Shown piece after piece: positions 3,395-54,987 of a DNA stretch of 64,000 bases. Location of the stretch: positions 2,628 through 66,627 of the forward strand of contig BTUR01000004.1 of assembly GCA_045863475.1 (NCBI GenBank), in the 5' to 3' direction. The number at the start of each line of letters is the position of its first letter. Position 1 is the first letter of the stretch. The position numbers and the translations under genes are program-made. The stretch is from Candidatus Campbellbacteria bacterium. GTDB taxonomy: Bacteria; Patescibacteriota; Minisyncoccia; Phycocordibacterales; EsbW-18. The notes under the pieces were generated by a model. The model was not told where the DNA came from and ran no database searches. It was given only the letters and a program-made list of their open reading frames with translations.

Positions 3395-3504
3395 GCCCCG
3401 TTAGAGACAAAAAAAAGACAATGACCGTGGCACGTCATCATCACCTTACGCCGAATCAACTCTAAAAATAAGGATATTTCTATAGTCCTGTTCTCTAACG
3501 GGGC
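3395..3504. repeat. MITE-like element, copy 1: roughly 14-bp terminal inverted repeats (gccccgttagagac / gttctctaacggggc) around an 81-bp AT-rich core, upstream of rpsB
   Basis: Inverted repeat read directly in the sequence. The same IR core, cccgttagag / ctctaacggg, recurs at 33565-33683. Confidence 0.45.
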
Positions 3505-3569
3505 TTGCCTGAATCGCGGCTTTTTGCTATTCTCTACGAGGCCCACAAGGGCGCTTTTCTTTCATCAAC

Positions 3570-4364
3570 ATGACGACCACAGAAAACCAGAAATCAGTCG
3601 CAGACCTCTTTGCTGCAGGAGCGCACTATGCGTACCCGAAAGCGCGTCGGCACCCGAGCACGAAGAAGTTCATTTTCGGCACAAAAGGCCCTGTAGAGAT
3701 TTTCGATATTGAAAAAACAGCGGATGCGTTGACACGCGCCGTTGAGGCCGTGCAGAAAGTTGCCATGACAGGGAAGAAGGTGCTCTTCGTCGGCGGAAAG
3801 CGCGAGGCACAGAAGGCGGTTCGCAATCTCGCAACGGTTGCAGGCGCGCCGTTTGTTGCAGGACGCTGGGTTGGCGGAACGCTCTCCAATTTCGATATCA
3901 TCAAAAAGCGCGTCGAAAAACTCCTGACGCTTTCTGAAGAACGCGAGCAGGGAACGCTTACGAAGTACACCAAGAAGGAACGATTGCTTATTGATCGACA
4001 GATTAAGCGTCTTGAAGAAATGTTCGGCGGTATCAAAACGATGTCGCAGACTCCGGGCATGCTCGTTGTTGTTGATCCGAAGCACGAGAAAATCGCAATT
4101 GCAGAAGCGACGATGCTTAAGATTCCCATTGTTGCGCTCGCGAACTCCGACTGTGACATTTCAACCATCACGTACCCGATTCCGGGAAGTGATGCGAATG
4201 TTGCGGCAATTACGTACGTTCTTGAACAGCTCACCGGTGCGTATGCACGCGGTGCAGCAGAAGCCCCGAAGAAAACTATTACCATGGAGCGAAAGCCGCA
4301 GCACGAGGCGCACACAGGTGGACGCCGCCTTCCGCGCTCCCCGCGCCCTGCGTCTCGCGCATAA
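3570..4364 (+). CDS. rpsB: 30S ribosomal protein S2
   Basis: N-terminus LFAAGAHYAYPKARRHP...KKFIFG.KG...IFDIEKT and the central VLFVGGKREAQ region are typical of S2. Confidence 0.9.
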   Translation: MTTTENQKSVADLFAAGAHYAYPKARRHPSTKKFIFGTKGPVEIFDIEKTADALTRAVEAVQKVAMTGKKVLFVGGKREAQKAVRNLATVAGAPFVAGRWVGGTLSNFDIIKKRVEKLLTLSEEREQGTLTKYTKKERLLIDRQIKRLEEMFGGIKTMSQTPGMLVVVDPKHEKIAIAEATMLKIPIVALANSDCDISTITYPIPGSDANVAAITYVLEQLTGAYARGAAEAPKKTITMERKPQHEAHTGGRRLPRSPRPASRA

Positions 4365-4881: not shown

Positions 4882-5361
4882 ATGACCGTACTCGCGAGCA
4901 TGTTCGGTGGCTCCATACTCCTTATCTCCGCTTTTTTTGCATTCAAGGATTGGGAACGGGGACGCGGCAGGGAAACAGCGTTCTCCGCGCTTTTAAACCG
5001 GTATTCACCATCGGTAGAGCGCTTGTATCGCCGTGTTGTCGCCAAAATTGTTTTCTGGTTGATGGTAGCCGTCGCCACCGTCCGTGCGCTGTTTCGTTTT
5101 GGGTTTGTGCGTGCACTGACGCTTACCCGGGCTACGGTTGCGGTGCTCGGTGCGCACATGATTCATGTCGCACGTGGGGAGCATTTGATTGCAGAAGGAA
5201 AGATACCTTCCACATATTTTAAACTTCTCCATCGACACAAAGAGCGAATTAACGGTACGGATATCCCGAAAGGTATTATCCATCAGGGTATACCCCAGCG
5301 GGTGAAAGTGACGGTTGCCGAGGAAACTAGTAGCGCGACCGCTCCTGCGCAGGTAGAATAG
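4882..5361 (+). CDS. hypothetical membrane protein
   Basis: ORF with several hydrophobic helices and no known motif. Confidence 0.45.
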   Translation: MTVLASMFGGSILLISAFFAFKDWERGRGRETAFSALLNRYSPSVERLYRRVVAKIVFWLMVAVATVRALFRFGFVRALTLTRATVAVLGAHMIHVARGEHLIAEGKIPSTYFKLLHRHKERINGTDIPKGIIHQGIPQRVKVTVAEETSSATAPAQVE

Positions 5362-5370
5362 TCCTCGTAC

Positions 5371-5446
5371 GCCGCCTTAGCTCAGTCGGTAGAGCAACAC
5401 TTTTGTAAAGTGAAGGTCCCCAGTTCGAATCTGGGAGGCGGCTCCA
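5371..5446 (+). tRNA. tRNA-Thr (anticodon UGU), CCA encoded
   Basis: Manual cloverleaf. Acceptor gccgcct/aggcggc; D-arm gctc-agtcggta-gagc; anticodon stem cact/agtg with loop tTTGTaa; T-arm cccag-ttcgaat-ctggg; discriminator t; then cca. Confidence 0.85.
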
Positions 5447-5618
5447 AACAAGCCTGTCGGGAGAGAAGTGAGGTGCCGTGGCACGTCACTTCTTTTGTTA
5501 GTGAAGGTCCCCAGTTCGAATCTGGGAGGCGGCTCCAAACAAGCCTGTCGGGAGAGAAGTGAGGTGCCGTGGCACGTCACTTCTTTTGTTAGTGAAGGTC
5601 CCCAGTTCGAATCTGGGA
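5447..5618 (+). repeat. Two extra perfect tandem copies of an 85-bp unit: a 47-bp spacer containing a terminator-like hairpin, then the 38-nt 3' part of tRNA-Thr (anticodon-stem 3' strand to CCA)
   Basis: Unit aacaagcctgtcgggagagaagtgaggtgccgtggcacgtcacttcttttgtt + agtgaaggtccccagttcgaatctgggaggcggctcca is repeated at 5447-5531 and 5532-5618. The last copy ends ctcac. The spacer hairpin is agaagtgaggtgcc/ggcacgtcacttct followed by ttttgtt. Confidence 0.85.
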
Positions 5619-5683
5619 GGCGGCTCACAGAGATTAATTGAACAGCGCGTCCTTAGCTTGCCGGGACGCGTTTTTCTTCCCCT

Positions 5684-6442
5684 GTGCCAAAGACGGCACG
5701 GACAGGTATAATGATTTTTATGCAAGAACGAAAAGAATATCACCACCCGATGACCCAAGCGATACGCGATGCCGTGCGTATCTTCTCTAGTATGGGATTC
5801 TCCGTCGCCTCCGGTCCCGAGATTGAGGATGAGTGGCACAACTTTACCGCACTTAACGTTCCCAAAGATCACCCCGCGCGTGACATGCAGGACACGTTCT
5901 GGCTTCCCGACGGACGCGTATTGCGCACGCACACGTCTCCGGTGCAGGTTCGGTGGATGCAGACGCACGAGCCGCCAATTCGCGTTATTGTTCCGGGCAA
6001 AGTATTTCGCAACGAGGCAACCGACATGACGCACGAGGCGCAGTTCTACCAACTTGAAGGCCTTGTTATTTCAGAGGACACGACGCTCGCGCATCTCAAG
6101 GGAGTGCTCGAAAAGTTTTTTAAAGAATTTTTCCACGGAGAAGTTGAAGTTCGGCTTCGTCCGAGTTTCTTCGGATTCACCGAACCCTCTGTTGAGGTGG
6201 ACATGCGTCTTTCCGGCGAAGGGGCACCAGCGAAACTGCGCGACCGATGGATTGAGGTTATGGGCGCCGGCATGGTGCATCCGCACGTGCTCAATAATGC
6301 CGGTATTGATCCAAAGCGTTTCCAGGGATTTGCATTTGGTGGTGGTATTGAGCGCCTCTGCATGCTCCGCTGGGGGATTGATGATGTCCGCGTGTTCCAC
6401 GGAGGTGATATCAGGTTTCCGATGCAATTTCCCGCTGAATAA
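5684..6442 (+). CDS. pheS: phenylalanine--tRNA ligase alpha subunit, short form lacking the N-terminal extension
   Basis: Class II motifs: FTALNVPKDHPARDMQDTFWL, HTSPVQVRWM, FRNEATDMTHEAQFYQLEGLVI, FRPSFFGFTEPSVEVDM. The true start may be an internal Met (5711, 5720 or 5747). Confidence 0.85.
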   Translation: MPKTARTGIMIFMQERKEYHHPMTQAIRDAVRIFSSMGFSVASGPEIEDEWHNFTALNVPKDHPARDMQDTFWLPDGRVLRTHTSPVQVRWMQTHEPPIRVIVPGKVFRNEATDMTHEAQFYQLEGLVISEDTTLAHLKGVLEKFFKEFFHGEVEVRLRPSFFGFTEPSVEVDMRLSGEGAPAKLRDRWIEVMGAGMVHPHVLNNAGIDPKRFQGFAFGGGIERLCMLRWGIDDVRVFHGGDIRFPMQFPAE

Positions 6443-6444
6443 CT

Positions 6445-6729
6445 ATGAATCCCGATAGTGTAAAAAAGTTTTACTATGTGTATGTGCTCAAGAGTCGGAC
6501 AAATAATCAGTGGTATGTTGGCTATACATCTGATCTTCGAAAGAGATACATCGAGCATAGCCGCGGTAAGAGCACATACACAAAAAAACGCGGTCCGTAC
6601 GAATTAATATATTACGAAGCATACAGAAACGAGCAAGATGCAGTGTCACGAGAACAGCAACTTAAATCTGGGCAAGGGAAAATGTATCTACGCAGGAGAA
6701 TTAAAAGATTTTTAACACTATCGGGATGA
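6445..6729 (+). CDS. stand-alone GIY-YIG nuclease family protein (94 aa)
   Basis: YYVYVLKS...WYVGYTSDLRKRYIEH matches the GIY-YIG (URI domain) signature. Located between pheS and pheT with 4-bp overlaps on both sides. Confidence 0.7.
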   Translation: MNPDSVKKFYYVYVLKSRTNNQWYVGYTSDLRKRYIEHSRGKSTYTKKRGPYELIYYEAYRNEQDAVSREQQLKSGQGKMYLRRRIKRFLTLSG

Positions 6730-9149
6730 AAGTATCTCGCGCATGGCTCCAAACTTTTTTTGAAACACCACTTCCCGACGCGGGTGAACTTGAACGTGTC
6801 CTCACCTTCGGTGCATTTGAAGTTGAAGGTGTCGAGGAGAATGGTGAGGACAGTATTCTGGACGTGAAAGTGTTGCCAAATCGCGCGCATGACTGTTTGT
6901 GTCACCGCGGTATTGCAAAAGAACTCTCGGTACTGCTTGGGCTATCGCTGTCGCGTGATCCGCTTACGGAGGAGGTGCCGGCATTTGATTCTTTCGGTGA
7001 TGTCTCGGTTTCCGTTGAAAACACCTCCGCGTGTCCTGCGTACCATGCCGCACGCGTAAGCGGTGTGCGCGTCGGCCCGTCACCTGTGTGGCTTGTTAAG
7101 CGTCTTGCAAGCATCGGTCAGCGCTCCATCAATAACGTTGTGGATGCGACGAATCTCGTTATGAATGAACTGGGACAGCCACTGCACGCATTTGATGCCT
7201 CAAAGCTTGGTGGTGCAGACGGGAAGAAAATGATTGCGGTGCGCATGGCGCGCCCGGGCGAGTCGATAACCATCCTCGGAGGTGACAGCTACACGCTTGC
7301 GGATACGGTACAGCTTATTACCGATGCGGCGACGGACACACCTATTGCAATGGCGGGTATCAAGGGAGGAAGTGTTGCTGAGGTTGATGAGAATACAACC
7401 GACATTATTCTCGAGTCCGCGAAATTCCATCCGACGCTGACACGAAAAGCATCACAACTCCTGAAGTTGCGAACCGATGCGTCGTATCGTTTTGAAAATG
7501 AGATTCCGGATGAATTGCCGGCGTACGCGCTTTCCGAACTCATCACGCTCATTAAAGACATCGCCGGAGGCGAGCTTTCCGGATATGCGGGCGTTGTGCG
7601 CCCACGCGCCTCACTGCCGTACAAAATCGGCATCTCATCGCGTGAGGCCAACAAACTTCTCGGTACAGACCTTTCAGACAGTGACATGGAAAAGATTCTT
7701 ACTCGGTACGGTTTTGCATATGAAATGATAGAGGACCCGAGAGTGCGGATTGTGGGGCGCGCGAAGAGTGTTATTGGCGCTCCGTACAAACGCCTGGCGC
7801 GCATCCGCTTCGACACTCCCAAGAGTTTCAACTGCTCATCACTGTCGGCATGGTGTGCGATTGAGGCAGGGTGTTCATTTGGCGTTGCACGTATCGCGAT
7901 TGACCAGTTCGCGTATCTTGATCCTGTTGATGAAAAAAAATTGGCACCCGGTGACTTGGTGTTTACAAATACCGGAGAGGTTCGCACGATGGGGGGTGAG
8001 ATGTATTCAAATGTGCTGGACACGATGGTTCAGGATGAGGCAATTCGCACAAAGACATTGGAATTTTTGCCGGGGACAGATATCGGCCACGGTGTTGATC
8101 ACGTCGGCATCTACACAGGCGACGGAAAGGTTATACATACATCTTCAAAAACAGGGACGGTTGCCGAAGAGGTGCTCTCAGAGAGTCCGACGTTTGCACA
8201 CGAGAAATGGTACCGACGCATCGTCACAGAGGACGAGGTGCGGTTTTCAGTAACAGTTCCGTTTTCACGTCTTGATATGCGCTTGCCCGCCGACCTGATT
8301 GAAGAAATCGGCCGCGCGTACGGGTATGAGAATATTGCCGCACGTGAATTGCCCGCTCCTACCACATCGCCTGAACAGAATAATCTCTGGTGTGCCTCTG
8401 AGACGGTTCGCCGTGCGCTTGCTGGTCTCGGATTTATTGAGGTGTACTCGTATACATTGCGGGAAAACGGGGCGGTGAAACTCGTTAATGCACTTGCGGA
8501 AGATAAAGCATTCATTCGCAGCTCGCTTGTTCCCGGTGTCGTCGAGGCTCTTGAAAAAGGAGAATACCACGCGCCATTTTTGGGACTCACTGAGGTGTTG
8601 GTGTTTGAAATCGGCAATGTGTTTGATGAAAAGAATGAGCACCTGCACGTGTGTATCGGTGCCCGGCCGCTTGCGAGTGCAAAACGCAGTGAGAAGGCAA
8701 ATGCAAAACTCCTGGAAGCGAAAGAGACACTGGAGAAGGCGCTTGGTGTTCACCTCGATGAACAGGTGGGTGAAGAGACGCTTGCGTTCAATCTCAGTTC
8801 CGCCATTGAAGGCAAAACATATGCGTGTCCGGAGTTTTCTCCCGTTGTAGAGTCAGCAGCGTATATTCCACCGTCCTCGTACCCGTTTATGTTGCGCGAC
8901 ATCGCCGTGTGGGTTCCTGACGGGGAGGGAAGCGGGGATGACATTGTCTCTGTGGTGCGAGAGCATGCGGGAAATTTGTTTGCTCGCGCTGATGTGTTTG
9001 ATACGTTTTCAAAGGAAGGAAAGACCTCGTATGCGTACCATCTTGTATTTCAATCGCATGAAAAGACACTCACGGATGCGGAGGTAAACGAAATCATGCA
9101 AAAGGTGACGGATAGCCTTAACGGACGCACGGGTTGGCAAGTTCGTTAA
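6726..9149 (+). CDS. pheT: phenylalanine--tRNA ligase beta subunit carrying a roughly 170-aa NlpC/P60-like (papain-fold) insertion within or after the B5 domain
   Basis: The N-terminus MKVSRAWLQTFFETPLPDAGELERVLTFGAFEVEGVE, B3/4 and B5 regions, VTVPFSRLDMRLPADLIEEIGRAYGYENI, and the C-terminal FDX-ACB-like end are all PheT. The insertion (FNCSSLSAWC...PGDLVF...HVGIYTGDGKVIHTSS) has Cys and His motifs in NlpC/P60 order. Confidence 0.9.
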   Translation: MKVSRAWLQTFFETPLPDAGELERVLTFGAFEVEGVEENGEDSILDVKVLPNRAHDCLCHRGIAKELSVLLGLSLSRDPLTEEVPAFDSFGDVSVSVENTSACPAYHAARVSGVRVGPSPVWLVKRLASIGQRSINNVVDATNLVMNELGQPLHAFDASKLGGADGKKMIAVRMARPGESITILGGDSYTLADTVQLITDAATDTPIAMAGIKGGSVAEVDENTTDIILESAKFHPTLTRKASQLLKLRTDASYRFENEIPDELPAYALSELITLIKDIAGGELSGYAGVVRPRASLPYKIGISSREANKLLGTDLSDSDMEKILTRYGFAYEMIEDPRVRIVGRAKSVIGAPYKRLARIRFDTPKSFNCSSLSAWCAIEAGCSFGVARIAIDQFAYLDPVDEKKLAPGDLVFTNTGEVRTMGGEMYSNVLDTMVQDEAIRTKTLEFLPGTDIGHGVDHVGIYTGDGKVIHTSSKTGTVAEEVLSESPTFAHEKWYRRIVTEDEVRFSVTVPFSRLDMRLPADLIEEIGRAYGYENIAARELPAPTTSPEQNNLWCASETVRRALAGLGFIEVYSYTLRENGAVKLVNALAEDKAFIRSSLVPGVVEALEKGEYHAPFLGLTEVLVFEIGNVFDEKNEHLHVCIGARPLASAKRSEKANAKLLEAKETLEKALGVHLDEQVGEETLAFNLSSAIEGKTYACPEFSPVVESAAYIPPSSYPFMLRDIAVWVPDGEGSGDDIVSVVREHAGNLFARADVFDTFSKEGKTSYAYHLVFQSHEKTLTDAEVNEIMQKVTDSLNGRTGWQVR

Positions 9150-38812: not shown

Positions 38813-39631
38813 ATGAGGAACGGCTCCCTCGCAGGTAAGTGTGATGATGCGCTCACCCCGGTACGGATACCGGTCGCTCTTGGACACACCCTTGAAGACG
38901 CCGTCGACGTAGTCGGCGCTGCTCCACTCGAAGGTTCCGTAGTCAGATTCGAATTCCTCAGACCAGGTACCTTTGTTGTAGAGGTTCCAGTAGAGGTCAG
39001 CGGTTACATGTCTGCCAGGGCGAATCTTGGCATGTCCCGGTCCGACGATGATTGCATCATGTCGGAACGCACACTCATTTCTTGGTGTGCCGAAGCAGTA
39101 AGAGCAACGTATGCTATCTTCCAGTGGTTTTCTGGATGACCCCGATTCACTGTGTGACACCGAGGCCGAGTTTGACTTCTGGCTGTCCTTGAGTTTCTTG
39201 AGTTTCTCGAGAAGCTCAAGGGTCATGGGAACGGTCTTACAGCCCGTGTCTGGGTCAAACTCATGCTCCGACAGCGCCTTTCCGACGACCTTGCCGTTAC
39301 AGATGACGGCTCTCGCGTTCGGCTGACCACTTTTCGGGTCGAAGTTGTCCTGCGGCAACCGCTCCTCGAACTGACGTGACAGCCACTTCATGGAAGCAGC
39401 AGTCGGTGACCATGCAGAGAGGAACAGCCAGGCGACGACGGCGGAGAGGCCGACAGTCAGCATCTTGTACAGCTTGTGCTCGCGCCCGGTCCACAGCATC
39501 GTGATTGCCATGGCGATGAGGCCGATGGCGACCCATGTGCTTCCTTCAGGCAGAGCTGAACGAACGGCTGCCAAGAGGAACAGTACGATGGCGACGGTTC
39601 CGAAGATCCGCCACTGCGTAGCTCTGGTCAT
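38801..39631 (-). CDS. membrane-anchored protein paralogous to 37371-38627 in its C-terminal domain
   Basis: Start at MTRATQWRIF... (ATG 39631), overlapping the upstream stop (ATGA). C-terminal IIVGPGHAKIRPG...GTWSEEFESDYGTFEWSSADY...PSS*. Confidence 0.6.
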   Translation of the reverse strand: MTRATQWRIFGTVAIVLFLLAAVRSALPEGSTWVAIGLIAMAITMLWTGREHKLYKMLTVGLSAVVAWLFLSAWSPTAASMKWLSRQFEERLPQDNFDPKSGQPNARAVICNGKVVGKALSEHEFDPDTGCKTVPMTLELLEKLKKLKDSQKSNSASVSHSESGSSRKPLEDSIRCSYCFGTPRNECAFRHDAIIVGPGHAKIRPGRHVTADLYWNLYNKGTWSEEFESDYGTFEWSSADYVDGVFKGVSKSDRYPYRGERIITLTCEGAVPHPSS

Positions 39632-40389
39632 TTCGTTTCTCCTGGAACAAGCCGGAAGATGTTGAAGGACGCGGTGAGGAGCGCTGATGTCGCGAGGGCG
39701 ACAATGAGTTTCCCTGCGCCCGGCGACACCACGAACCACCACCAGAACACGATGGACAGAACGAGCAGGGCGAGCATCATGATTGCGTAGGCCTTAGCGG
39801 ACCACGTGAGGATCTTGCCTGCCTTGTCAGCCGCTTCTTTGGCCGTCGCTTTCGCAGCCTCCAAAGCGGTATTCTTCTCGCGAACCTCTCGAAGCAGAAG
39901 CGACACCATCATGTCTGCCGCCTCCGGACTGCGAGTCGAGCTTCTGAGAAATCCGATGATGAGCGACTCCGGCTCAAATCCCGCCGGATATGCCTCGCGC
40001 TGAACCGGTTCCTCGATGACCTCCGTGACGCCTCCCTTGCGCTGTCGCGTCGTCTTCTTGATGAAGGTGAGCATGCGCGGGGGAAGGTAGCCGTCTTTCG
40101 CCTGCGTGAACATCTCAGCAATCGCTTGCTCGACGGCATCACGTTCGTCAGGCGTCTTGAGGCGGTTGATTGCATCAACGAGAATCTTGCGTCTCTTGAA
40201 GGGGAGAAACTTGTCGTTGTTCACGACCGTGTTGAAGTCCAGTTTCTCCTTCTTCTGATCGTCGGGCTTCTTGCTGTCCGTTGTGGTTGCGACCGTCTTC
40301 ACCGCCTCCTTCCCGAGTTTACCGAGAAGCGCCGCGATGGAATCGCGAATTGCGTGGGCGATCAAGTCGTCCCAGATGTTTTTGAACAT
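39628..40389 (-). CDS. hypothetical protein with a C-terminal TM hairpin (about 254 aa)
   Basis: RBS GGAGAA precedes ATG (MFKNIWDD...). Lys/Glu-rich and coiled-coil-like, with two C-terminal TM helices. Confidence 0.55.
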   Translation of the reverse strand: MFKNIWDDLIAHAIRDSIAALLGKLGKEAVKTVATTTDSKKPDDQKKEKLDFNTVVNNDKFLPFKRRKILVDAINRLKTPDERDAVEQAIAEMFTQAKDGYLPPRMLTFIKKTTRQRKGGVTEVIEEPVQREAYPAGFEPESLIIGFLRSSTRSPEAADMMVSLLLREVREKNTALEAAKATAKEAADKAGKILTWSAKAYAIMMLALLVLSIVFWWWFVVSPGAGKLIVALATSALLTASFNIFRLVPGETK

Positions 40390-40778
40390 CTTCGTTCTCC
40401 TTTGGAGAGTGAGGGGTAAAGACGATTGTATGTACAAGCTCTACGAGAGAGCGTTATTTTCCAAGTTCGTTGTTAGAGAGCTTCTGTTGAGAATATAGCA
40501 CAAACAGGCCAAAAAGTCAAGTTATGAAAAGACAAATCACGGCTCTACAGAGCCGTGGTTTAAGCAAAACAAAATCACCGAACGCGGTGCGCTCGGTTCT
40601 TTGTTTTGTGGGCGGGAGAGTCGGCCAAGCGCTCGCTTGTTGCCGTCGCTCCTCGCTCCGCTCAGCCCTGCTCTTGCGACCCCGTCTGCCACCGGGGTGC
40701 CCGCAATTCGCCTTCGAGTCCTCTCTCGCTGACAAACAAAATCGCCCAAGGACTCGCCCTGGACTCATTTGTTTGTTG

Positions 40779-40860
40779 TGGGCGGGAGAGGACTCGAACC
40801 TCCATGTCTTGCGACACCAGCTCCTAAGGCTGGCGCGTCTACCAATTTCGCCACCCGCCC
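40779..40860 (-). tRNA. tRNA-Leu (anticodon UAG), long variable arm, no encoded CCA
   Basis: Minus-sense gggcggg-tg-gcg-aaattggtaga-cgc-g-ccagc-cTTAGga-gctgg-tgtcgcaagacat-ggagg-ttcgagt-cctct-cccgccc-a. Confidence 0.8.
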
Positions 40861-40889
40861 ATCCATCATGCGAACCAAAACATAATAAT

Positions 40890-40962
40890 GTCCACCCAGT
40901 AGGAGTCGAACCTACAACCAACTCCTTAAGAGGGAGCTGCTCTGCCAGTTGAGCTATGGGTG
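40890..40962 (-). tRNA. tRNA-Lys (anticodon CUU), unusual C1-G72 acceptor pair, no encoded CCA
   Basis: Minus-sense ccaccca-ta-gctc-aactggca-gagc-a-gctcc-cTCTTaa-ggagt-tggtt-gtagg-ttcgact-cctac-tgggtgg-a. Confidence 0.7.
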
Positions 40963-41139
40963 GTAACCAGAGCTATTCTAGCAACAACAAAAAGGTTTTT
41001 CTAGGTGGGCCAGGTGGGAATCGGTCACGAGTATTTTTCTGCTGAAAAACCTCGCGACCCGTGAAAAGGTATTTGTATACCTTTTCACCGCGCCGTCGCG
41101 CTCCGGCTTTCGATTCCCACAACAAAAGTTTGTTTTTTG

Positions 41140-41221
41140 TGGGCCAGGTGGGAATCGAACCCACATCTCTTACGAGACACGATCTTAAGTCGTGCGCGTA
41201 TACCAGTTCCGCCACTGGCCC
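41140..41221 (-). tRNA. tRNA-Leu (anticodon UAA), long variable arm, no encoded CCA
   Basis: Minus-sense gggccag-tg-gcg-gaactggtata-cgc-g-cacga-cTTAAga-tcgtg-tctcgtaagagat-gtggg-ttcgatt-cccac-ctggccc-a. Confidence 0.8.
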
Positions 41222-41367
41222 AAAAAGGGAAGTGCGAACAGGAATCGGTCACGAGTTTCTAATTCGCTGCGCTCACAAGAACTCTTGACCTCGCCTCGTC
41301 GCCGCCGAAGGCGGCACACTGCGGCCTTCGATTCCCGACGAAAGCAAAGCAGTTTGCTTTCTTTCGT

Positions 41368-41439
41368 GAGGCACGAACGGGAATCGAACCCGTGCATAAC
41401 GGTTTTGCAGACCGTCGCGTTACCACTTCGCCATCGTGC
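41368..41439 (-). tRNA. tRNA-Cys (anticodon GCA), discriminator U73, no encoded CCA
   Basis: Minus-sense ggcacga-tg-gcg-aagtggtaa-cgc-ga-cggt-cTGCAaa-accg-ttatgc-acggg-ttcgatt-cccgt-tcgtgcc-t. Confidence 0.75.
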
Positions 41440-41454
41440 CGCTACATCCCCATT

Positions 41455-41775
41455 TTAATCGCGAATCGAAAGCGTGTCGATGTCCTGACGATTCTTCTCA
41501 CCGTAGTCAATTTCAAAATCAAAGAAGGGGATGACGCGCACGCGGGTCTTCTTCTTTACGTAGGTGCGCAGTTCGGGACGCTTTCGTTTTAGGAAATCCA
41601 GTGCGTGTTGCTCGTAACTCTCCGGCAGAACGCTGATGTAGATTGTCGCCTGTTTTTCATCAGTTGAAAGTGCCGCGCGTGTCACGGTGATAAGGGACTC
41701 ACGGTTTGATTCGAAGTTTACGAATTCCGCAGCTGTGTGTGCGAGCAACTCTTCCTTTTGTTCTTTGTGCGACAT
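41455..41775 (-). CDS. rbfA: ribosome-binding factor A
   Basis: ...SLITVTRAALSTDEKQATIYISVLPE... KH-like RbfA core, directly downstream of infB. Confidence 0.8.
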   Translation of the reverse strand: MSHKEQKEELLAHTAAEFVNFESNRESLITVTRAALSTDEKQATIYISVLPESYEQHALDFLKRKRPELRTYVKKKTRVRVIPFFDFEIDYGEKNRQDIDTLSIRD

Positions 41776-41776
41776 A

Positions 41777-43279
41777 TTATTTCTCGACGATAGTGAACGC
41801 GTTTATGTAGTCACCGACGACAAGTGTCACGGATGAGTCGATACGGGCACCGAATTCAACGCCTGCTTCCGCTGTCTTTATTTCATCACGCTGTTTTTGG
41901 AGCCCTAATATTTTTCCCGTACCAATTTCTTCGGTCTTGCGAACGATAGCGACGGTGTCTCCGACGTGCAGCGTTCCGTCCTCAACTTTTCCGCCGACAA
42001 CCTGCTTCGTTTTGACCGCAGAGAAGCAGCGTAATATTCGCGCGCTCCCGTGCACCTCCTGTACGTCATGCTTCGGGCGGCGCGTTACGACGATGTCTTG
42101 AAGCCACTCAGAGATGCGATAGATGATACTCTCCGTGTGTATGCTCATACCGGCACGCTCCGCCGCTATTCGGGCTTCCGATTCAACTGCGGTGTTGAAT
42201 CCAATGAGGACGGTTCGCGCATCACCGCCGCCGATTTTGACATCATTTTCCGTGATGGGACCGACGCCGGTGTGCAGAATCTTGAGAACGACACCGTCGT
42301 CGTGAATTTTTGCGATTTCATGTGCGATTGCATCAATGGAGCCGACGGCATCTGCTTTGATGACGACCGGTATGAGCGCACGCTCGTCGTCCTCTGAAAG
42401 TTCAATCATTGATTTTGTTGTCGGAGTATCATGGACAATTTGTGCGCAATAGCTTTCGGCATCCTTCTTTTTTGAGAATGCTTTGACCGTATCGCCGACA
42501 CTTGGCACGTCGTTCCATCCATTGATGGTCACCGGGGAAGAGAATGTTGCAGTCTCCACTGGTGCTCCGGTGAAGTCGAAGATAGCGCGTACCGGTGCAC
42601 ACGCAGCCCCTGCGGCAACGGCCGTGCCTTTTGCGAGCGTTCCGTTTTGAATGATAAATGTTGCAGAGATGCCGCGCTTTGCGTCGCGGTGCGCCTCGAT
42701 GACGAATCCTTCCGCGTCAGTATCCGGGTCAGCCTGGAGTTCCTGGAGTTCGGCGAGGAGCAAAAGCATCTCCAGAAGTTCTCCGATACCGTCGCCGCGC
42801 TTCGCCGAAACCGGGATGCAGGGGATTGAACCACCGTAGCCTTCAGGGTAGATGCCGTTTTCAATCAAACTTGAAATGGTGTGATTTTGATCGGCATTCG
42901 GTGAGTCGATTTTGTTAAGCGCAATGCAAAATGGAATACCTGCATCTTGGATGGCTTGGTAGGCTTCTTTTGTTTGCGCTTTAACACCGTCTTCGGCGGA
43001 CACAACGAGGATCGCAATATCGGCAACAGATGCGCCGCGAGCGCGTTGCGCCTTAAACGCCTCGTGTCCGGGTGTGTCGATGAACGTTATCTTTTTCGGG
43101 TTTCCGTTTTTGTCCGCGTGCGTAACTTCGTATGCTGCGGTGTGCTGGGTTATGCCGCCCGCTTCACCGGCGACAACGTTGGCCTTGCGAATGTAGTCAA
43201 GCAGGCTGGATTTGCCGTGGTCGACATGTCCGAGCACGACAATAATAGGGGGTCGTTCTGTTGTGCGTTTGTCGTGCAT
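41777..43279 (-). CDS. infB: translation initiation factor IF-2, short form (500 aa; G domain to C-terminus only)
   Basis: [47 protein letters not shown]-domain motifs and the IF2 C-terminal beta-barrels. Confidence 0.9.
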
Positions 43280-48646: not shown

Positions 48647-48717
48647 GGGCGATTAGTTAAATGGTATAACAGTGGTCTCCAAAACCACTATTGGGGGTTC
48701 GATTCCCTCATCGCCCG
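48647..48717 (+). tRNA. tRNA-Trp (anticodon CCA), no encoded 3' CCA
   Basis: gggcgat-ta-gtta-aatggta-taac-a-gtggt-cTCCAaa-accac-tattg-ggggg-ttcgatt-ccctc-atcgccc-g. Confidence 0.8.
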
Positions 48718-48893
48718 CAACGACCGGTGAAGACAGCCGGGGGCTGTCGGAGTCGGACGTCGGCGGATGCGAGAAGGGAATCGAACGGCGGAGTTCCGGT
48801 TTACCGGAACGAGCCGCGTCCAGCAGTACTTAGGAGCGAAGCGACTTAGTAACTGCGGGACGATTCCCTCAGGAATTCTGTTACACCAGAACC

Positions 48894-54193: not shown

Positions 54194-54194
54194 G

Positions 54195-54265
54195 CCCCTG
54201 TAGTTCAACGGATAGAACAACTCCGTCCTAAGGAGTGGATCTGGGTTCAATTCCTGGCGGGGGCA
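54195..54265 (+). tRNA. tRNA-Arg (anticodon CCU), no encoded CCA; begins 2 nt after tRNA-Gly
   Basis: gcccctg-ta-gttc-aacggata-gaac-a-actcc-gTCCTaa-ggagt-ggat-ctggg-ttcaatt-cctgg-cgggggc-a. Position 32 is G, which is unusual. Confidence 0.7.
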
Positions 54266-54336
54266 CAAAATCTACGTTAACTAATTGAATGGGGGTTCAA
54301 TTCGGGGTGGGGGCACTGGAGTGATATACTGTTTTC

Positions 54337-54628: not shown

Positions 54629-54705
54629 GCCGAGGTAGCTCAGTTGGTTAGAGCATCTGCCTGAAGAGCAGAGGGTCGGCGGTTCGAGTCCGCCCCTCGG
54701 CACCA
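54629..54705 (+). tRNA. tRNA-Phe (anticodon GAA), CCA encoded
   Basis: gccgagg-ta-gctc-agttggtta-gagc-a-tctgc-cTGAAga-gcaga-gggtc-ggcgg-ttcgagt-ccgcc-cctcggc-a-cca. Confidence 0.85.
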
Positions 54706-54707
54706 AA

Positions 54708-54745
54708 TCAAAACAAGACAGCTTCGGCTGTCTTGTTTTGATTTC
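54708..54745. terminator. rho-independent terminator after tRNA-Phe (aaaacaagacagc-ttcg-gctgtcttgtttt)
   Basis: Perfect 13-bp stem with flanking A-runs and T-runs. Confidence 0.7.
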
Positions 54746-54987
54746 TGCGTTGTATCGCGGCGGACTCGAAGGCCGCAGGAACGAGGCGGGGTCGAGAACA
54801 CTTAGGATTTTGGAGCCCATAGGGCGAACAAAATACTTAGTGATTCGTGACCGAGTCCGCCCCTCGGCACATAACAAGAAAAAGACAGCATGTGCTGTTT
54901 TTTTCTTGTTACTGCATGGTTGTTTTTGGTTTCTGTCTTGGTATCGTCCCTAAGGGACGCGTGCGTCCCTTAGGGACGACCGGTGTG

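Follow-up and report, generated by a model that had tools for sequence, protein, structure and literature searches.

Transfer RNA (tRNA) genes are the classic landing sites of prophages and genomic islands, which are kilobases long and carry their own integrase. The T-loop is one described sublocation at which the tyrosine integrases of prophages and islands target these genes (Williams 2002, as cited in PMC9897764; bioRxiv 10.1101/2020.11.02.365908), and this type of integration has a known signature, namely direct repeats that extend from the T-loop to the tRNA 3' end (bioRxiv 10.1101/2020.11.02.365908; PMC9897764). We analyzed a 64-kb stretch of a Candidatus Campbellbacteria contig (BTUR01000004.1; hereafter, the window) and identified a family of short inserts behind its tRNA genes, which shows this signature at approximately 1% of the size of an integrase-bearing island and without a gene. 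We tentatively regard the inserts as miniature, non-autonomous elements that integrate into the tRNA T-loop and possess a folded core of single-stranded DNA or RNA, a reading that we consider plausible, if short of probable.

Five copies of the family were found in the window, behind tRNA-Cys, tRNA-Leu(UAA), tRNA-Leu(UAG), tRNA-Trp, and tRNA-Phe (named E_Cys, E_LeuUAA, E_LeuUAG, E_Trp, and E_Phe), and about half of the tRNA genes in the window are occupied. The copies share a common layout and core motifs. Read in the tRNA sense, each consists of a spacer (often a hairpin), an inverted piece, a core, and a direct piece. The inverted piece is the reverse complement of the T-loop and 3' T-stem of the upstream tRNA, and the direct piece repeats the tRNA sequence that starts at C56 in the T-loop and ends with the discriminator. 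The core contains GAARGCCGGA, followed by GAGGCGGGGUCGAGAG and then ACUCGUGAC; further motifs common to the three inserts behind tRNA-Cys, tRNA-Leu(UAA), and tRNA-Leu(UAG) are GAARGCCG..., ...ACGAGGCGRGGUCRAGA..., and ...CUCGUGAC. The junction between the core and the direct piece is constant: wherever the direct piece is intact, it starts at CGA directly 3' of GTGAC. In the predicted fold, the inverted and direct pieces form a closing helix (P1), which meets two hairpins (P2 and P3) around a three-way junction.

A covariance model built from 25 elements and run with filters off matched exactly these sites in the window and nothing else, with scores of 92 bits for E_Phe, 79 for E_Cys, 56 for E_LeuUAA, 52 for E_Trp, and 14 for E_LeuUAG (E 0.11). 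The folding z-scores of the copies ranged from -1.5 (the degenerate E_LeuUAG) to -8.6. Three of the copies lie in a cluster of four tRNA genes that reads 5' to 3' on the minus strand. The features are as follows, where L-numbers label contigs or loci of relatives and of metagenome matches.

41368 to 41440, minus strand: tRNA-Cys(GCA), predicted by ARAGORN and Rfam, with a promoter-like site upstream (41480 to 41452).
41339 to 41367, minus strand: spacer hairpin P0 of E_Cys (acgaaagaaagcaaaCTGCtttgctttcg), with CUGC-type-loop relatives in many family members.
41327 to 41338, minus strand: inverted piece of E_Cys (tcgggaatcgaa), the reverse complement of the tRNA-Cys T-loop and 3' T-stem.
41248 to 41326, minus strand: conserved core of E_Cys, comprising P2 with an inserted UUCG hairpin and P3; the model match spans 41238-41338 (79 bits).
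41231 to 41247, minus strand: direct piece of E_Cys, a degenerate tRNA-Cys 3'-end copy from C56.
41139 to 41221, minus strand: tRNA-Leu(UAA), predicted by ARAGORN and Rfam.
41109 to 41120, minus strand: inverted piece of E_LeuUAA (gtgggaatcgaa), complementary at 12/12 positions to the T-loop and T-stem and at 10/10 to the direct piece.
41024 to 41108, minus strand: core of E_LeuUAA; the model match spans 41014-41120 (56 bits).
41006 to 41023, minus strand: direct piece of E_LeuUAA, an exact 18-nt tRNA copy from C56 to the discriminator.
40890 to 40963, minus strand: tRNA-Lys(CUU), predicted by ARAGORN and Rfam, with its own promoter-like site (41003 to 40975).
40778 to 40860, minus strand: tRNA-Leu(UAG), predicted by ARAGORN and Rfam.
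40732 to 40777, minus strand: terminator-like hairpin 1, between tRNA-Leu(UAG) and E_LeuUAG.
40607 to 40731, minus strand: E_LeuUAG, a degenerate member (14 bits, E 0.11) with an orthologue in L004.
40564 to 40606, minus strand: terminator-like hairpin 2, whose A-tract and GATTTTGTTT tail are the same as those of hairpin 1.
48773 to 48871, plus strand: E_Trp, behind tRNA-Trp (48647-48718); 51.8 bits, E 2.6e-12, not in the model seed.
54759 to 54871, plus strand: E_Phe, behind tRNA-Phe (54629-54705); the best member in the window, 92 bits.

The repeated tRNA parts had been noticed in a sequence-only reading of the cluster, with some positions shifted by up to 7 nt. The four tRNAs that it named were found by both ARAGORN and the Rfam model RF00005 (59-71 bits). 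Neither program predicted an extra or intron-containing tRNA in 39500-42500 that might account for the fragments. The recurrence of the tRNA-Leu(UAA) 3' end is genuine: TGGGCCAGGTGGGAATCG occurs exactly twice in the window, at 41140-41157 within the tRNA and at 41006-41023, 7 nt away from the previously given 41013-41030, compared with a chance expectation of 0.00 (100 shuffles). The end of tRNA-Leu(UAG) is copied together with its flank, as had been proposed (40600-40620 versus 40770-40790, 86% identity), and the inverted T-arm pieces are real, at 40713-40731, 41109-41120, and 41327-41338. The sequence-only reading missed a recurrence of the tRNA-Cys 3' end, in degenerate form, at 41231-41247 (cgattcctgttcgcact versus cgattcccgttcgtgcct). 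The perfect 12-bp hairpin exists at 41061-41088 rather than 41067-41107, and is not a separate feature. It interrupts E_LeuUAA between P2 and P3 as an additional stem-loop, is missing in the L007 and L008 orthologues, and represents a lineage-specific insertion within one copy. The six open reading frames (ORFs) listed there overlap tRNAs and elements and showed no Pfam match at E<=0.1, which upholds their dismissal as spurious.

The copies differ in their surroundings. The direct piece of E_Cys ends 9 nt before tRNA-Leu(UAA), so that E_Cys must be co-transcribed with both tRNAs. In E_LeuUAG, the inverted piece copies the entire tRNA 3' end (40713-40731); the core occupies 40624-40712, and the direct piece 40607-40623. 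Because hairpins 1 and 2 share the A-tract and the GATTTTGTTT tail, the sequence suggests that the segment duplicated at tRNA-Leu(UAG) extends beyond the tRNA end. E_Phe is likewise flanked by two related terminator hairpins (54706-54744 and 54873-54910). The tRNA-Lys(CUU) gene has no element behind it in the window genome, and the Lys-Leu spacer measures 29 nt.

The fold is maintained across the family. The minimal version measures 84 nt, and the repeat-to-repeat spacing is 95-304 bp among approximately 100 relatives. In an alignment of 100 sequences that was fitted to the covariance model, 23 of the 26 modelled base pairs showed double (compensatory) changes, and 91.9% of the cells were paired, versus 73.5% in shuffles. 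The covariation score was 0.474, in comparison with 0.148 in shuffles (0/500 reached the observed value) and 0.05-0.09 in slid controls. An alignment by MAFFT/RNAalifold, which is independent of the model, showed the same compensatory pattern. The compensatory substitutions beyond the controls, in the model-fitted alignment, assign the family to structured RNA or single-stranded DNA in the generic sense. P2 and P3 were approximately 97% paired, and P1 82%. The base of P3 is conserved and its tip variable; one G.U pair, adjoining an AxG mismatch and a bulged A, was kept in 95/100 sequences. Outside this pair, the G.U and A.C counts were 75 versus 50, a difference too weak to tell RNA or the strand. 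The hairpin tips are mostly C(GNA)G triloops, with GCGAAGC present 16 times versus 1.1 expected, and UNCG loops are almost absent. The oligonucleotide d(GCGAAGC) forms an unusually stable DNA mini-hairpin.

To determine the distribution, metagenomes were scanned with the degenerate pattern GGCGRGGTCRAGA-N(20-50)-TCGTGACCGA. At least 120 loci matched, mostly true elements, with the rest representing chance matches in GC-rich coding sequence. At E<1e-3, the covariance model yielded 100 matches from 77 sources, frequently with several on one contig; among the matches listed, 78 of the 97 analyzed have a tRNA gene on the same strand within 330 nt upstream, and 30 anticodon types are represented. 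The core subtypes do not track tRNA identity. The core of E_Phe in the window resembles that of the tRNA-Trp element in L008 (IF-2 only 65% identical), and tRNA-Trp is followed by three different core subtypes in different contigs. An Rfam 15 search by cmscan at E<=10 over 39500-42500 returned tRNAs and chance matches only, and at the gathering threshold the element-rich loci L037, L041, and L056 contained only tRNAs. The pattern scan of viral contigs gave 0 matches, and blastn against phages and plasmids gave none. We found no account of the element in the literature on Patescibacteria or the Candidate Phyla Radiation (CPR), the tRNA T-loop, ribozymes, introns, or miniature att sites. The inserts constitute a real, widespread, and apparently undescribed element family, probably of CPR bacteria.

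These data bear on the sequence-only reading, which took the inserts for att-site scars. Its observation of direct repeats around the inserts holds, with these repeats beginning in the T-loop, and the Leu-UAA insert is precisely absent from the closest syntenic relative, L004 (see below). The scars would be unrelated remnants of ordinary large tRNA-integrating prophages or islands with deleted interiors. The 95-304 bp spacing approximates the size of a full attP; that of phage lambda is roughly 240 bp. Insertion by an integrase also classically yields T-loop-to-end direct repeats, with an intact tRNA at one junction and a tRNA fragment at the other (PMC9897764; bioRxiv 10.1101/2020.11.02.365908). 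However, a constant architecture and a conserved core at 30 tRNA types are not what independent deletions would produce, and the hairpins are maintained by compensatory changes. No autonomous, integrase-bearing, kilobase-scale version was present among the approximately 75 pattern-positive sites examined for an upstream repeat, and the phage, plasmid, and viral collections contained no match. Decaying scars of unrelated larger elements are therefore very unlikely, and the inserts represent one family conserved in both sequence and structure.

The occupancy of the cluster varies among relatives. Syntenic relatives were found via IF-2 homologues, and the sole IF-2 match in the genome contigs was a distant Peptostreptococcaceae sequence. 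Elements follow tRNA-Cys, tRNA-Leu(UAA), and tRNA-Leu(UAG) in the window. L004 (79% IF-2 identity) has elements after tRNA-Cys and tRNA-Leu(UAG) and none after tRNA-Leu(UAA); L007 and L008 have an element after tRNA-Leu(UAA) only, orthologous to the window copy; and the four-tRNA clusters of L005 and L131 are element-free. The inserts are in part conserved across the lineage, a pattern that the sequence-only reading had counted against att-site scars. The flank downstream of the E_LeuUAA direct piece is orthologous to that of the element-free tRNA in L004, where the tRNA-Leu(UAA) end runs directly into 'cctagaaaaac', the flank after the downstream repeat in the window. This join indicates a precise 134-bp indel at tRNA-Leu(UAA). 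The E_Cys cores of the window and L004 differ at approximately 7 of approximately 90 positions (by eye), and the adjoining non-functional spacers are unalignable.

The inverted pieces follow their tRNAs. In L004, caaat in the tRNA-Leu(UAG) T-loop is matched by atttg in the inverted piece; the corresponding window sequences are cgagt and actcg, so that the pair has changed together. The downstream Leu(UAG) piece reads cgact in L004, and the same g-to-c change is found in the window. An inverted copy of the acceptor (at most 1 mismatch) is present in only 12/78 elements and, where present, matches the tRNA rather than the diverged downstream piece. The co-changed pair and the acceptor-copy match fit a unit that extends from C56 to GTGAC, in which the downstream copy is the displaced original end. 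A tRNA-like minihelix was considered as the defining feature of the family and rejected, as the inverted acceptor copy occurs in those 12 elements only.

Further arrangements were consistent with recombination at this boundary. In L024 and L072, a tRNA-Pro fragment (comprising the variable loop, 5' T-stem, and T-loop) that lies downstream of an intact tRNA-Pro is interrupted exactly at TT/CGATT by a Gly-type unit, forming a heterologous T-loop junction. Complete or partial second units occur in tandem in L071, L031, L058, and L091. The direct repeats frequently continue beyond the tRNA end into the terminator. One unit among the sites examined carries a gene: a 146-aa cupin ORF in L103 (1129-1569, minus strand) lies between tRNA-His and a His-type element, within a 1-kb insert.

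The elements resemble T-loop-integrating islands in that the direct repeat runs from the T-loop to the tRNA 3' end (18/18 nt identical between 41006-41023 and 41140-41157), the tRNA is restored and its old 3' end displaced, and an indel occurs exactly at the repeat boundary (L004). Presence and absence among relatives, tandem accretion, and hybrid junctions are shared as well. Unlike such islands, the elements measure 95-304 bp rather than kilobases, contain no integrase or other gene (except for the cupin ORF in L103), possess a conserved three-way-junction core and an inverted copy of the target, and constitute one family at 30 or more anticodon types.

Based on these features, a unit is proposed to recombine into the T-loop of a tRNA gene between positions 55 and 56 (TT/CGA). 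The unit, U, would carry a substitute tRNA 3' end, in many cases together with a terminator, along with a spacer hairpin, an inverted piece, and a three-way-junction core ending in GTGAC; its circular form would thus hold one tRNA 3'-end copy, the spacer or terminator, the inverted piece, and the core. Integration would leave the tRNA intact, since U supplies its 3' end, and the old 3' end would be moved downstream, free to decay. Such displaced original ends would be the 'partial tRNA copies' of the cluster. The inverted piece could pair with either copy of the tRNA end, and the core would then sit on a duplex replica of the target, as in a folded attachment site, with the replica stacked on P3 and the exchange point at the junction. 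For tRNA-Leu(UAA), the empty site would read ...GGGTTCGATTCCCACCTGGCCCA followed by CCTAGAAAAACC, and the circle junction (GTGAC joined to CGATT...) would read ...ACTCGTGAC followed by CGATTCCCACCTGGCCCACAAAAAACAAAC. The recombination may be catalyzed in trans by a putative tyrosine or HUH recombinase, and the folded form would be single-stranded DNA rather than RNA.

We lean towards a folded single-stranded DNA site, by analogy with integron attC or the CTXphi attP, because of the C(GNA)G-type tips, the many copies located between two terminator-like hairpins, and the fixed mismatches in a conserved stem. Like attC and the folded attP of CTXphi-type integrative mobile elements exploiting Xer (IMEX), the element would be a small, mostly non-coding recombination module that acts as a folded imperfect hairpin, although its own fold is a three-way junction. 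Its proximal stem is conserved and carries mismatches or a bulge, whereas the tip varies; the hairpin would rebuild a duplex copy of the target, and arrays and occasional cargo are found. Conversely, the elements lack RYYYAAC/GTTRRRY boxes, IntI, attI, and dif, and their core ends in GTGAC/CGA. They also target the tRNA T-loop, have the extra branch P2, and no enzyme was found for them. Compared with miniature inverted-repeat transposable elements (MITEs), REPINs, and Correia-type repeats, the elements are similarly small (approximately 100-150 bp), non-coding, hairpin-forming, non-autonomous, and present in several copies per genome. They do not belong to the MITEs, as their terminal inverted pieces are not constant and instead copy the adjoining tRNA, the flanking repeat is 17-21 bp or more of tRNA and variable in length rather than a short fixed target duplication, and they lie strictly 3' of tRNA genes. 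Analogies with IS200/IS605, IS91, IS110 bridge RNA, and TnpB omega RNA were rejected by reading, since their motifs or gene partners were absent.

Several observations weigh against integration by such a unit. No recombinase, transposase, or reverse transcriptase was detected in the window (Pfam, 27 ORFs, housekeeping genes only) or adjoining the elements, and no excised circle was observed. The Leu-UAA site is the only clean filled/empty pair, and its empty state could arise without an enzyme, by slippage between 18-bp repeats 134 bp apart. Within the window genome, the cores are diverse and of old age, and orthologous copies are found in close relatives. Both facts point to long vertical residence under purifying selection, a pattern unusual for a selfish element that is inactive and more in keeping with a function for the host. 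The reading also does not explain how a unit that moves to another tRNA comes to carry an inverted piece and a 3' end that fit it. In addition, the G.U pair kept in 95/100 sequences, together with a junction rich in purines and variants with tandem G.A pairs, resembles an RNA tertiary core, and the elements in tRNA operons (E_Cys in the window; L037) are necessarily transcribed.

Some of these points would be accounted for by a structured non-coding RNA that derives from the tRNA 3' trailer and benefits the host, with the three-way junction acting, for example, as a protein-binding or processing module. The tRNA pieces would then pair with each other as the closing helix, or alternatively with the 3' region of the tRNA, and the repeats would stem from local duplication rather than mobility. 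The strong covariation, with none of the 500 shuffles reaching 0.474, and near-invariant sequence conservation agree with such an RNA, as do the conserved G.U pair, AxG mismatch, and GAAR junction, the small divergence of the E_Cys core from that of L004 beside unalignable spacers, the location of E_Cys and the L037 elements inside polycistronic, and thus transcribed, tRNA units, and the fact that a streamlined CPR genome has kept about five copies within 64 kb. However, close relatives lacking all copies (L005, L131) or single copies (L004) indicate that the RNA would be dispensable, and many copies lack their own promoter and are preceded by a hairpin resembling an intrinsic terminator. The hybrid, tandem, and cargo arrangements are unexpected for a fixed RNA gene, the terminal loops lack GNRA and UNCG motifs, and no function explains why each tRNA should have to be matched. 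Among known tRNA-derived RNAs, the elements share a non-coding nature and an origin from, or resemblance to, tRNA parts with tRNA trailers and tRNA-like RNAs (E. coli 3'ETS-leuZ, the bacterial Y-RNA-like YrlA [PMC4201824], and the tRNA-like domain of transfer-messenger RNA), and some copies form a helix resembling an acceptor plus T-stem. They differ in that a three-way junction replaces the T-loop, the acceptor mimic is limited to 12/78 elements, each copy matches a different tRNA, and Rfam gave no match. A host-beneficial trailer RNA is possible, and we consider it rather unlikely.

The position of the junction raises the question of catalysis by the RNA itself. A putative small ribozyme could reversibly cleave and ligate at GAC/CGA, and possibly also at UU/CGA in the T-loop, as its guide is able to pair with both copies, with the unit behaving as a T-loop 'intron' or as a greater-than-unit-length copy of a small circular RNA. 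The putative reaction site would lie exactly at the three-way junction, where P3 is stacked on P1 without a linker and the flanking nucleotides are highly conserved. The 5' piece resembles an internal guide paired to the tRNA 3' fragment, tandem units recall ribozyme-bearing repeat families, and in circular form U would close into a three-way junction at which its two ends meet. The element also recalls small ribozymes (hammerhead, hairpin, and twister-sister) in its compact three-way junction, whose conserved linkers are rich in purines, and in its G.A pairs, and an interruption of the tRNA 3' segment in the T-loop is reminiscent of the archaeal non-canonical T-loop tRNA introns. In contrast to both, the element showed no covariance-model or motif match and no bulge-helix-bulge (BHB), and the upstream tRNA is complete without splicing. 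No Rfam family other than tRNA matched beyond chance at E<=10 over 39500-42500, and the core motifs of the hammerhead, hairpin, and twister ribozymes were absent by reading. DNA copies would require reverse transcription, and no reverse transcriptase was seen; the 84-nt minimal core has short junctions only, and terminators frequently lie upstream of the element. We consider a ribozyme of this kind improbable. The hammerhead, hairpin, K-turn, C/D-box, and BHB were likewise rejected as identities of the fold by reading, as their defining motifs were absent.

A broader possibility, which we regard as doubtful, is that the three-way junction is a new catalytic or self-inserting module in which the inverted piece serves as a T-loop guide and the chain is broken and rejoined between positions 55 and 56. 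This might occur as RNA, in a new class of small ribozymes (T-loop 'introns' or small circular RNAs), or as single-stranded DNA with a new recombinase specific for the tRNA T-arm; either would represent a new CPR-specific mobile class.

If the inserts are miniature integrating elements, the target logic of islands (T-loop crossover, replacement 3' end, and displaced fragment) would operate here in units of approximately 100-300 bp, defining a minimal tRNA-targeting element and implying a trans-acting enzyme that recognizes T-arms. If they are RNA, they would constitute an abundant, undescribed class of structured RNA in Patescibacteria. In practice, the elements generate spurious ORFs and partial-tRNA calls, and they may drive rearrangements of tRNA order among relatives. 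Their repeats probably also break short-read assemblies at tRNA clusters: the L129 and L130 contigs end within approximately 100 nt of rbfA, and L007 contains a run of exactly 100 N (approximately 3475-3574) where the tRNA-Trp element is expected.

Several variants of the family were noted. In some copies, an extra module, GAAAAGCGTACTCGCG, lies between the core and the direct piece (L110, approximately 5885-5900; L008, downstream of tRNA-Tyr, 4938-5021, minus strand). In a sub-family with GAGAA in place of TCGAA at the 5' piece, tandem G.A pairs replace two Watson-Crick pairs at the junction. A second hairpin element of approximately 100 nt lies behind tRNA-Lys in L004 (6122-6224) and L008 (15665-15770) and is absent from the window. 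Its core reads ccagcaagccgYacctggttcgYgcgaag, and a diverged tRNA-Lys 3'-end copy forms its end. The sequences suggest more than one element family with the same architecture.

Other rearrangements were observed at tRNA loci. In L024, the 5' half of tRNA-Pro is duplicated as far as the anticodon loop, with the copy (569-612, minus orientation of the locus) immediately preceding the intact tRNA-Pro. Because this copy and the downstream Gly/Pro hybrid occur at one locus, the sequence indicates that L024 underwent several nested recombination events. In the relatives of the four-tRNA cluster, the Cys gene is inverted in L005 (11821-12308), the Leu-Lys-Leu block in L007 (11868-12396), and the Lys gene in L131 (6564-6987), while in L008 (11859-15924) the cluster is split by 3.5 kb carrying an apparent second copy of the downstream gene pair. 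By its gene order, the region appears to be a rearrangement hotspot. A free-standing ORF with a weak LAGLIDADG homing-endonuclease match lies between rbfA and tRNA-Cys in the element-free L131 (5935-6555).

Two other tRNA duplications lie in the window. At 5371-5627 (plus strand), the tRNA-Thr(UGU) gene is followed by two further tandem copies of its 3' half, from the 3' strand of the anticodon stem to the end, each with the same 54-nt terminator-containing spacer, in a 91-nt period. We considered this triplication as a T-loop element and judged it to be a separate, slippage-type tandem duplication; its boundaries share the microhomology CTTTTGT. At 24 nt past tRNA-Arg(CCU) (54194-54266), there is a diverged copy of the T-arm and acceptor 3' strand (gggggttcaattcggggtgggggcac, 54291-54316, plus strand), a 'bare' partial tRNA duplication without a core.

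The window encodes infB-rbfA directly upstream of tRNA-Cys, together with ClpB, L33, gyrA/gyrB, and aminoacyl-tRNA synthetases (Pfam). This housekeeping content and the identity of its IF-2 to a protein assigned at NCBI to a Candidatus Campbellbacteria MAG indicate that the window belongs to the core chromosome of a CPR/Patescibacteria bacterium. Within the PheRS beta subunit (6726-9149, plus strand), a weak NlpC/P60-like stretch was found at residues 445-487, between the B3_4 and B5 domains.

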